Shown in pieces: positions 14,641 to 21,720 of a stretch of DNA of 64,000 nucleotides. Position numbers and translations under genes: made by a program. Source of the DNA: Camelus ferus (lineage: Eukaryota); NCBI RefSeq assembly GCF_009834535.1, contig NC_045720.1, positions 992,001-1,056,000 on the forward strand, in the 5' to 3' direction. The first letter of the stretch is position 1. Each line of letters opens with the position of its first letter. A model generated the notes under the pieces. It saw only the letters and a list, made by a program, of their open reading frames with translations. It did no database searches and was not told the DNA's origin.

Positions 14641-15055
14641 CAACAGGAGAACTTACAAACACCACCCAGGGGGACCTGCCATCCCACCTCAGAGAACCAC
14701 CCTCTGCCTTGCAGGCAGTTCTCTGCCCCCTCTTCACATTGCACAGTGGATCCCAAGTCCTTATCTGGGTTGTGAAGGCTATAACAGCCTGGCCAGCAAG
14801 GTTTCTGAAGCAAAACACAGTCTAACTGGAATTGGGGCGGGACAGCATTCACAAGCGGTGAGAGGTGAGGAGCAAGCAAGGGGATCCTTAAAGTAAGTAC
14901 CAGAGCGCGGCGCTGGGCCCCGAGGAAGTGCTCCTGCACCCCTGCACAGCAGGGAAAGCTTCCTGGAGGAGAAGGCCTGAGGGCAGAGTGCTGTCTGTCT
15001 TAAAACATGGACAAGAGCTGTACGCTTCAAATTACAAGATGCTGAAGAAAGAGAC

Positions 15056-15435
15056 TGTGAGCTGGCCTTGAGATGAGTTAAGGCTGTGGGACCCTAAGGC
15101 CACGATCAGAGCATGTTTGCAGATGCAGTAAGCAATTGCTATACACGTGCATCAATTACATAAGATTTAGAACAAAGAAAATAGAAGTACGCACATGCTA
15201 GAGATATTTTGCAAGCCTAATGAACAAAGAAACTCAGATTGTGCATGTGCTGGCAGAGAACAGATAAAAAGCAGGACAGGTGCATCATAGGTGTGCACCT
15301 TCCTATGGCAATAATGTTGTTAACCCCATAGTGTCTCTGGCTGAAGTCTGTCCGGCGGTACAGCAACTCCTCATGAATTTTTTTGTTTGGGCCCCTCACC
15401 TCCTAGAACCCCACGTCAGCCTCCCTCGGCTGACA
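15056..15435 (+). repeat. 5' LTR
   Basis: tgtgagctgg...cggctgaca; direct repeat of 20900-21279 with about 30 differences by eye; poly(A) signal mutated to AATAAT. Confidence 0.95.
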
Positions 15436-15437
15436 CT

Positions 15438-15455
15438 TGGCACTGTGAGCAGGAT
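15438..15455 (+). promoter_or_regulatory. Primer-binding site complementary to tRNA-Ser(CGA)
   Basis: TGGCACTGTGAGCAGGAT versus the expected TGGCGCTGTGAGCAGGAT (reverse complement of the tRNA-Ser(CGA) 3' end ATCCTGCTCACAGCGCCA): 17/18, with one CpG-type G>A change. Confidence 0.88.
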
Positions 15456-15479
15456 GAGGTGAGTGCCCCCTCTGAACCC

Positions 15480-19700: not shown

Positions 19701-20885
19701 TCATGGTGTTCACCTCTGCTCTGTCCTTCCATCCAGGGTAACAGCAAATACCATATTCTCCTGGGCACACACATTCGCGTGAGTCCACCACGCCTCTCAC
19801 TGTTGGGTCTGCACTGAACTTCCCGTAGACGCAGGAGATGGACTGCTGTGGCACCTCCACCCCGCGTCCAGAGCTAATTGGTACACCTTGGTTTGATGGA
19901 ATGCCAACAGGACAGCGAGATTGCCCTGGGACTTGCGGCGGCAGACTATTGAAAAGATCCTCTGACGTGAGCAGGGCAATGCCCCCCCCCCCAAATTGGA
20001 AGGACTGTATGGAATGGGTGGGGATGGATGAATAGTGTTCATGTAAAAGTGAGAAATTTTAGCCCTCTCTGTATTGAGCAGCGGTTTGAACACGAGGCTC
20101 CAAACTGCACTGTGGGGTGGCTCCCAGAAGAGCTGTGTGCCAAAATTACTTACAATGTAAATGCCTCCACCTGGTGGGATGGATGACCTCTAATTGGCAC
20201 AAAACCCACCGATTTCCTGCCACCAGGGTACCTGTGGGTATGTGGCACCCACGGATGGTCTTATCTCCTGGCTAAGTGCACATGGCGCTATACTTGGGGT
20301 AGAGCTTACTTGCCTAGACATACCCAGCCCACTTTAACAGAGCGCCCCACAAACTGGGACCCACTGCACACCCAGTGGCACAGGGGGAAGCATGCAGCTT
20401 GGTGGTTTTATCCCATGGTCCTGCTCCTACCTGGTGCTGGGCCCATCAGTGTCAAATTGCAGGTAGAAGCTTTGACTCAGCTTATCAGCTGTGCTGAATG
20501 TTACTAGAAAAGCTATGGAGGAATTGTTAGATGAGACTACCCAGATGCGAAATGTGGCCTTACAAAATAGAATGGCATTAGATATTCTCACTGCAAGCCA
20601 GGGTGGCACATGTGCTATGTTACATATTGAATGTTGTATCTATATACCAGATCACCAGGAGGAAGTAGCCAAGGCACTGCATGAAATAGATCAGGAATTG
20701 GGATCGCATAGATCATGTAACTGAAGACCCTCTTAAGAATTGGTGGTCATCCCTGATGTCCTCCTGGAGATGGAGCCTAACTGTCCTGGCTATTGTAGCT
20801 GCCTGTGTATTGGTAGGCTGCTGTACTCTGTATTGTTGTGGTCTTTGGGCACGATGCTCCACCCTGTGGGCTAGGGTCCCCACCA
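19700..20885 (+). pseudogene. ERV env remnant (gamma-type)
   Basis: SU CWVC motif at 19801-19812; GYLWVCG; degraded furin site [19 protein letters not shown] plus CX6CC (CAMLHIECC); hydrophobic anchor near 20775-20850; frameshifted. Confidence 0.88.
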
Positions 20886-20899
20886 CCTAGGGGGTGGAA

Positions 20900-21279
20900 T
20901 GTGAGCTGGCCTTGAGATGAGTTAAGGCCATGGGACCCAAGGCCACTGATTAGAGCATGTTTGCAGATGCAGTAAATAATTGCTATACACATGCGTCAAT
21001 TATATAAGATTTAGAACAAAGAAAATAGAAGTACGCATGTGCTAGAGATATTCTGTAAGCCTAGTGAACAAAGAAACTCAGATTGTGCATGTGCTGGCAG
21101 AGAACAGATAAAAAGCAGGACAGGTGCATCATAGGCGTGCACCTTCCTGTGGCAATAAAATGTTAACCCCATGGTGTCTCTGGCTGAAGTCTGTCCGGCA
21201 GTATGGCAACTTCTCATGCATTTTTTTCACTTGGGCCACTCACCTCCTAAAACCCCACATCAGCCTCCCTCGGCTGACA
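20900..21279 (+). repeat. 3' LTR
   Basis: Direct repeat of the 5' LTR; retains AATAAA; ends in gaca followed by TSD GAGAC. Confidence 0.95.
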
Positions 21280-21720
21280 GAGACCAAAGAAGACCTTAAT
21301 AAATGGAGACATGTATCACTTTCATGGATTGGAAGACTCAATACAAATGTTAATTTTACCCAGGTTAATATAAAAATTTAATGCAATTCCTATCAAAATC
21401 CCATAAAAAAATTTTAGTAGACACGGACAAGCTTATTCTAAAATTTACATGGACAGGACAGGCCCTAGAATAGCTTTAAAAATTTCTTGAAAAAGAAGAA
21501 TGGGAGACCCACCACCCAGTAGGATACTGCCACTGTAATCAGGACAGTGTGACACTGCTGGTGGGGACAGACCCCTAGGTCTAAGCAGCAGAATAAAGAG
21601 CCCAGGCACAGATCCACACAAAGACGCCCAGCGGAGTTTTGACAAAGGTGCAAAAGTAATTCAATGGAGACTTGAGTTAGTAACAATGTGCCAGCGTTGG
21701 CTCATCAACTGTAAAACAAA
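21280..21720 (+). mobile_element. Old L1 ORF2 fragment split by the provirus (left half at about 14995-15055)
   Basis: Removing the provirus and one TSD gives ...gctgaagaaagagaccaaagaagaccttaataaatggagacat..., an L1 ORF2-like string. Confidence 0.8.

Follow-up and report, generated by a model that had tools for sequence, protein, structure and literature searches.

A decayed camelid ERV-S provirus with a likely doubly spliced env gene and a predicted dUTPase-fold domain in pol

How can an endogenous retrovirus (ERV) express a captured envelope gene when the frame of its surface subunit (SU) has no start codon of its own? The question is raised by a provirus at 15056-21279 of a 64,000-nucleotide (nt) stretch of the Camelus ferus genome (assembly GCF_009834535.1, contig NC_045720.1, positions 992,001 to 1,056,000 of the forward strand), hereafter the window, to which coordinates refer unless stated otherwise. 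A class III backbone combined with a class I env is already known, and the expression of the captured env is unsettled in the literature that we found. With a probability of roughly 0.78, we read the locus as a decayed, gag- and reverse transcriptase (RT)-deleted provirus of a camelid ERV-S family, with a likely doubly spliced env whose leader is nested in RT and a pol that includes a predicted dUTPase-fold domain. On its own, the window locus is an ordinary dead member of a lineage that is already known, found in a new host; what deserves following is the anatomy of the lineage, namely the probable leader exon in RT and the predicted dUTPase-fold remnant.

A probable env leader exon nested in the reverse transcriptase

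We compared the window copy with 28 other loci that were fetched (the internal search scored 29 of 57 candidates), and the addition of 16 further loci brought the internal-bearing loci examined to 45. Copy L020, a near-duplicate of L019, was excluded from the splice-signal survey and from the shared-change test, and the poorly aligned L023 from the analyses of codon positions, rare bases and replacements among shared changes.

Upstream of SU, its frame reaches a stop without passing a start codon in 24 of 26 copies. The ATG near 19657 was rejected as an env start, since it is in frame in the window copy only. When the 24 residues that precede SU in named Env proteins from donkey, sloth, squirrel, horse and alpaca were compared with all six frames of the provirus, they scored best at 17359-17430, within RT. 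The N-termini mapped in this way sit in frame +2 relative to RT and end at a GG/GTAAGA donor, and the junction is identical for five loci in four mammalian orders. Each of the five beats all 300 shuffles (scores 54-123 against shuffle maxima of 46-53). Three of the four non-camelid proteins begin at a Met within the nested exon, squirrel isoforms change their N-terminus at the same junction, and two horse entries (P0083 and P0102) differ here by exactly 40 residues, the length of the exon.

The exon itself is 120 nt long, bounded by an acceptor at 17310 and a donor after 17429. Among 27 copies the acceptor AG is found in all 27 and the donor GT in 26, the length of 120 nt is kept in 25, and the frame is open in 20. 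The acceptor AG of SU is present in 23 of 26 copies; at the major donor, ATGAG stands ahead of the cut in 23 of 27 copies and GT follows in 25. The exon frame holds 8 stops per 985 codons compared with 50, 99 and 149 in neighbouring intervals, a contrast that is no test because the copies are not independent. The exon ends in a hydrophobic stretch, with a hydropathy of 2.21 in most exons and about 1.4 upstream of SU. The reading phases agree across the ATG and two bases before the major donor, the 120 nt of the exon and the acceptor at 19737. Four camelid gene models have three exons, the first of which finishes at the leader donor (15458); the three models that were mapped all fall on copy L012 as leader, nested exon and SU. 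Both acceptors are used in contigs, joined there to other donors (16280->17310 in one run, 19210->19737 in two), in runs that may hold DNA. In an env-less relative (L033-L035) the corresponding site carries no acceptor, and a stop interrupts the frame.

Taken together, we consider it likely that env is split and that its leader is encoded on an exon nested in RT. The env mRNA would consist of the leader (ending at 15458), 17310-17429 and 19737 onward, and the nested exon would supply the hydrophobic signal that is missing from the exon for SU and the transmembrane subunit (TM). No clear spliced env retrocopy was seen among 130 genome matches to P0084, nor in the 16 further loci.

Two sets of envelope models deserve mention in their own right. 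Copy L012 (G000:C1:42628500-42636300; exons at 963-1094, 3138-3260 and about 5523-6203) has a leader-plus-SU frame of 304 amino acids (aa) with a stop just past the end of SU, a frame that is annotated in alpaca and in Camelus species (P0084, P0104-P0106). It shows 14-15 differences between alpaca and camels, with 11 of 18 rare residues in common, and its product is a candidate secreted, domesticated SU. Against domestication, the stop lies at the same codon in three other copies, and open stretches of this length arise by chance. Open full-length Env models of the lineage are P0080/P0095/P0096 and P0083/P0100 in Equus, P0081 in sloth and P0082 in squirrel. An Env form of 433 aa is common to Przewalski's horse, horse and donkey, and 8 differences separate the donkey version from that of the horse.

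Organization of the provirus

The features of the window copy are as follows, in order along the forward strand. Further abbreviations are LTR (long terminal repeat) and ISD (immunosuppressive domain).

15051..15055, no strand: 5' target-site duplication GAGAC, identical to 21280-21284
15056..15435, + strand: 5' LTR, 380 bp, TG...CA
15438..15455, + strand: primer-binding site, tRNA-Ser(CGA), 17 of 18 bases
15454..15464, + strand: ATG and major splice donor, with the leader exon ending at 15458; likely env start (ATGAG/GT conservation, camelid gene models)
15504..16560, + strand: broken gag without a CCHC knuckle, with 305 nt deleted near 16000; motifs in common with HERVS Gag (by eye)
15882..16086, + strand: cryptic gag intron GT...AG, retained in the window copy; 512 nt in undeleted copies
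16567..19741, + strand: pro-pol, broken, with protease DTG, RT, tether, RNase H and integrase
17270-17281, + strand: YIDD of RT
17310..17429, + strand: exon of 120 nt inside RT, in a different frame; likely env leader (signal peptide)
19255..19555 (approximate), + strand: predicted domain of dUTPase fold that lacks motif III, following the integrase core; modelled from copy L001
19577..19741 (approximate), + strand: predicted SH3-like integrase C-terminal domain; structure matches to Tudor, chromo and integrase C-terminal domains, Z about 6-7
19737..20890, + strand: env SU-TM exon, broken, with CWVC, ISD, CX6CC and membrane anchor
19801-19812, from 20560, and 20611-20637, + strand: CWVC, ISD and CX6CC, respectively
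20889..20899, + strand: polypurine tract
20900..21279, + strand: 3' LTR, 380 bp, TG...CA
21280..21284, no strand: 3' target-site duplication GAGAC, identical to 15051-15055

A preliminary description of the locus had named the LTRs, the GAGAC duplication, a Ser(CGA) primer-binding site and a polypurine tract, all of which were located, as were the CWVC, ISD and CX6CC motifs that it had reported for env. It had also counted by eye an LTR divergence of about 8% with many CpG transitions. The exact value is close: 28 differences over 378 aligned sites (7.4%), or a Kimura two-parameter distance of 0.080 (0.067 without CpG sites), and 12 of the 25 transitions lie in CpG context. A tRNA-Ser(CGA) gene occurs once in the genome, and the primer-binding site agrees with its 3' end plus CCA at 17 of 18 bases. 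Thirteen open pieces were submitted to Pfam; RVT_1, the tether, RNase H, rve and TLV_coat passed the cut-offs, and the protease match (RVP) was weak, with an E of 0.025.

The term "structurally complete", which had been applied to the provirus, does not hold for its coding region, where 305 nt of gag and about 194 nt of RT are missing and frameshifts and stops occur besides. The RT segment is absent near 17150 and is retained in all 25 other copies that span the site. Frameshifting indels number three in gag, four in pro-pol and three in the env exon. A gag, pro-pol or env that is open throughout occurs in none of the 29 copies.

Membership of the ERV-S lineage

[quoted passage not shown] In a comparison by eye on the printed consensus, RT is identical to HERVS at 84 of 121 residues and to HERVL at about 53 of 121. 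The features by which Vargiu et al. (2016, PMC4724089) define HERVS are the lack of a dUTPase and a class I env related to PRIMA41 and PABL. The camelid family has a gamma-type env with TLV_coat whose nearest named proteins are PABLB-like, a serine primer site as in the HERVS lineage, and, at the 3' end of pol, no dUTPase that can be identified by sequence. Neither the DSDYxG motif nor the absence of env that marks ERV-L was found. No CCHC knuckle was present in Gag among 29 copies, which together with YIDD in RT fits class III.

In a tree, the family joins a caecilian pol that bears a dUTPase (support 100) against Ty3/gypsy, in a set without gamma, beta or foamy rows, and searches of the PDB were mixed, with RT scoring murine leukaemia virus (MLV) above foamy chains and integrase matching foamy best. 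The class III assignment therefore rests on the HERVS match and on the markers. The earlier suggestion of a class III gag-pol of the HERV-S kind joined to a gamma-type env is borne out, and the likeness to HERVS is closer than the "ERV-L-like" label that it had used. The split env, the dUTPase-fold remnant and the sublineages with gag deletions do not figure in that earlier description.

Of the 28 copies listed, 17, not including the window copy, have anchors in gag and pro that are 261 nt apart, and gag and pro are therefore in one frame. With this shared frame in most copies, Gag-Pol would be made by read-through. The env-less relative (L033-L035), with 63-66% RT identity, has no env match and retains the post-integrase domain.

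A predicted dUTPase-fold domain after the integrase core

Between the integrase core and the C-terminal domain lie about 100 residues without a Pfam match. A representative search found 38 relatives of this domain, of which 26 rows were aligned. A template-free model from copy L001 has a predicted local distance difference test score (pLDDT) of 78 and a predicted template modelling score (pTM) of 0.51. The first seven Foldseek rows are all dUTPases (best E 0.017). In a wide structure search, the seven chains at Z of at least 8 are six dUTPases and pp71 of human cytomegalovirus (HCMV), which we take to be dUTPase-derived (best Z 9.2, root-mean-square deviation 4.2, 110 aligned residues). Position and length match a dUTPase of the ERV-L type, which is placed after integrase (PMC1224870). 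The position also equals that of the true dUTPase of the caecilian class III pol, through the end of which there is a weak alignment (E 0.005).

Motif III (DSDYxG) occurs in none of the 38 homologues and none of 26 copies, and is present in the controls P0012/P0013. Among shared changes in this region replacements are depleted, with a ratio of 0.32 (p 0.016; p 0.08-0.19 under other settings). The post-integrase domain is predicted to be a dUTPase fold without its catalytic motif, and may have a structural, non-catalytic role within integrase.

Gag deletions, primer sites and mode of spread

The frameshifting 305-nt deletion in gag occurs in 9 of 27 gag-bearing copies, the window copy and eight others. 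A second frameshifting deletion, of 512 nt, occurs in 5 of 27 copies and is the exact removal of a GT...AG intron. The copies that lack the intron (L001, L002, L004, L010 and L011) are mostly young, with whole LTRs and 5-bp duplications. Given these LTRs and duplications, the gag-deleted copies were therefore copied by retroviral enzymes, with Gag from another locus. The 305-nt deletion is flanked by a short direct repeat and its copies do not form one clade in quick trees; recurrence or recombination is therefore possible.

Gag-deleted templates were copied more than once, and spread therefore likely relied on helper proteins in trans, a view that the deficit of replacements among shared changes in gag and pro-pol also supports. 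The window copy would derive from a template that was already gag-deleted, Gag and Pol would come in trans from a helper locus, and some later copies would stem from RNA with the gag intron spliced out.

Across the family, the two LTRs of a copy differ by 0.5% to over 18%. This divergence is 6.6-11.4% among Ser(CGA) copies (n=10) and 0.5-10.8% among Ser(AGA)-type copies (n=12; pairs with fewer than 250 aligned bases were excluded from this age comparison). Older copies are mostly Ser(CGA) and younger ones of the Ser(AGA) type (p 0.0015, with related copies and hence not an independent test). The Ser(AGA)-type site is found in 13 other copies; it has 10 genomic matches, of which three were scanned and called Ser(AGA). 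The two primer sites differ at 4 of 18 bases, and the switch may have occurred by copying of the other tRNA. A tRNA-Ser would prime reverse transcription, and later copies would have switched to the Ser(AGA) site. Target duplications of 5 bp are exact in 8 of 22 LTR pairs and have one mismatch in 5 (automatic search; the rest were not located).

The LTR search of the genome gave at least 260 first-look candidates, of which 40 were scored at 88-92% identity. L001, L004, L008, L009 and L011 carry a variant LTR of about 425 bp whose 5' part is duplicated. L019 and L020 lie about 45 kb apart, have 115 rare bases in common and represent a host segmental duplication. In the older sublineage L037-L052, integrase and the start of SU are deleted in 11 of 16 loci, and the deletion stops at the same place, window position 20036 (20039 in L049); their LTR pairs are mostly 11-19% apart. 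Recombination between L011 and L017, suggested by trees, is unsupported, as their six shared rare bases do not exceed those of other pairs. No related loci were found in viral contigs.

Host and insertion age

The nearest named proteins of the family are from alpaca and Camelus, and one Camelus protein is identical to copy L001 at 389 of 389 residues. A dromedary gene model (P0011) matches both flanks and the intervening provirus, and the insertion is therefore common to the dromedary. This model (888 aa, window 13586-21639) joins pieces of flank and provirus in mixed frames and is likely an annotation artefact. An alpaca protein carries 8 of 15 rare residues of the window copy, against two for the next copy (7 of 13 with the shorter isoform), and the insertion is probably in common with alpaca, an orthology suggested by rare residues rather than by flanks. 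Presence in related species, proposed earlier as a check, thus stands for the dromedary and probably for alpaca.

The Camelini-Lamini split is dated to about 16.3 million years ago (PMC12337305). Since the locus is apparently shared with alpaca, the insertion is older than about 16 million years. The LTR clock gives 15-18 million years at an assumed 2.2e-9 per site per year, and the shared-fraction age is about 35 million years (interval 22-77), inflated by changes that predate the insertion. We estimate an age of about 20-35 million years. The range of 10-25 million years suggested earlier fits as regards an insertion inside the camelid lineage, and its young half is unlikely given the apparent sharing with alpaca. 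The window copy would have decayed neutrally after insertion, more than about 16 million years ago. Elsewhere in the family, the LTR pairs of L011 and L015 are merely 0.7% and 0.5% apart; L011 is apparently common to the dromedary (P0002, with 8 of 10 rare residues), its internal branches are long, and LTR dating may be too young here.

Alternative explanations

The N-termini derived from RT could be explained by cryptic splicing that gene predictors took up in decayed loci, with a conventional env in an ordinary ERV-S copy. Several observations weigh against a nested leader and in favour of this account. The joint 17429->19737 was seen in none of four runs (raw reads were few: 17 and 29); those reads, the matches in two single-cell raw runs of which about 1-2% each was read, have no joints. 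Several other splice signals are used in the family. The contig runs include flank too and may hold DNA, and for that reason are no evidence that the window locus is transcribed. The donor overlaps the codons for a Gly-Lys of RT that is conserved, and the env-less relative has retained it. Conservation of the donor alone is therefore weak evidence. Hydropathy is the sole signal-peptide measure and is 2.42 upstream of SU in L016; a weakly hydrophobic stretch lies ahead of SU, and an acceptor could also lie nearer. For the other mammals, the evidence on env consists of gene models, known without their genomic DNA. However, cryptic splicing would have to yield the same junction at five loci in four orders, an isoform difference in horse equal to the exon length and a Met inside the exon in most non-camelid proteins, and it leaves SU without a start codon in nearly all copies. 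We regard it as improbable and retain the split env with its leader in RT. A similarly low chance attaches to the possibility that the post-integrase domain is not derived from dUTPase and that its model shows a common beta-sheet arrangement. Here the link is by predicted fold only, with Z barely over the range that the tool calls common and a modest pTM. No sequence-level link appeared in Pfam or the PDB sequence search, profile comparison gave a 6% probability over the C-terminal part only, an uninformative Atlas look-up with the domain returned nothing above threshold, and two papers describe ERV-S as having no identifiable dUTPase. Set against this, two structure searches rank dUTPases first, place and length are those of an ERV-L-type dUTPase, and the caecilian alignment points the same way.

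The remaining alternatives concern the family as a whole. It may have spread mainly by reinfection with enveloped particles rather than by copying inside a germ-line cell. In favour of this, env is full length in most copies, including young gag-deleted ones, env splice signals are conserved, and shared SU changes lean to third positions (52% against 34%, p 0.035). Yet among changes shared by three or more copies the replacement ratio is 0.66 in env (p 0.15; low power, with 68 shared env changes), compared with 0.22 in gag (p 9e-7) and 0.33 in pro-pol (p 2.5e-10). As a test of reinfection, the deficit of replacements in env is weak and non-significant. Also, most of the further loci of the older sublineage lack integrase and the start of SU. 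Reinfection as the main route thus seems rather unlikely, and helper-supplied, mostly intracellular copying is favoured. A different matter is whether Repbase or Dfam already has an entry for the family with an alpaca or camel name, in which case only the anatomy would be new. Repbase contains alpaca families such as LTR2_Vpa (PMC6726744), a camelid survey counts about 1000-1300 ERVL-class elements per genome (PMC8605555), and the LTR candidates in this genome are numerous. A camelid ERV-S is named nowhere in the literature found; nevertheless, we lean slightly towards a prior database entry.

Significance

A leader exon nested in RT gives a testable account of env expression and ties env to pol, and it shows screens for domesticated envelopes where start codons may lie. 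If the account is true, screens based on open reading frames miss split envelopes: two in Equus, those of sloth and squirrel, and the SU-only form of camels and alpaca. The dUTPase-fold remnant, if true, turns a marker that was "absent in ERV-S" into one "inactivated but kept", and puts the gain of dUTPase before the split of ERV-L and ERV-S. The camelid family, with its wide span of LTR divergence, forms a long series for following primer switching and the copying of spliced RNA. We give somewhat better than even odds to the wider proposal that, across mammals, ERV-S took the signal peptide of its captured env, carried by a separate exon, from an overlapping RT frame, that selection has preserved inside integrase a dUTPase domain without catalytic activity, and that open ERV-S envelopes are overlooked candidates for domestication.

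Comparison with known systems

ERV-L elements use a Leu primer. They are env-less and keep DSDYxG, and their RT is about 44% identical to that of the camelid family. The likeness to HERV-L and MuERV-L lies in the class III pol order, with a domain of dUTPase fold following integrase (PMC1224870). In Xenopus, XtERV-S (Yedavalli et al. 2021, PMC8278194) resembles the camelid family in its Ser primer-binding site, YIDD, 5-bp duplication and many deleted copies, in a short gamma-type env with CWxC near the start of SU, and in gag and pol that share one frame. It differs in that, according to the available text, its gag-pol is ERV-L-like with a recognisable dUTPase segment, and its env frame has its own 19-residue signal peptide and is expressed from singly spliced RNA (PMC8278194).

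In the work of others, equine ERVs are named by primer-binding site (PMC5682256). The camelid ERV-S, the nested env leader exon and a dUTPase remnant in ERV-S were not found in the literature searched, which was mostly without subscription papers or supplements. Avian sarcoma-leukosis viruses (ASLV) and deltaretroviruses have an env leader that is common to or overlaps another gene. We know of no case in ASLV, deltaretroviruses or lentiviruses with a signal exon about 2.3 kb upstream, inside the RT domain. The lentiviral env leader also overlaps another gene (PMC9967133), and in the available text of that review of gamma-type Env the words "exon" and "splice" have no occurrences.

HERV-S (HERV18/LTR18; PMC4724089) is alike in its collinear Gag, Pro, RT, pol C-terminus, SU and TM, in the class I env on a gag-pol of class III, and in the lack of a zinc knuckle and of a sequence-detectable dUTPase. 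By eye, the camelid LTRs do not look like the start of the HERVS chain as printed, and LTR pairs are down to 0.5% apart in the camelid family compared with 13-42% in the human HERV-S supergroup. The published HERV-S Env putein, as given in the available text, starts with the tail of pol, not with an RT-derived leader. The proteins annotated as "ERV group PABLB member 1 Env-like" in horse, donkey, sloth and squirrel (P0080-P0083) have 43-49% identity over SU-TM and the same N-terminus from the RT frame, and differ in being open full-length Env models of 409-460 aa, whereas the env of the window copy is broken. The splice pattern is implicit in public gene models of this kind: recorded, if not discussed.

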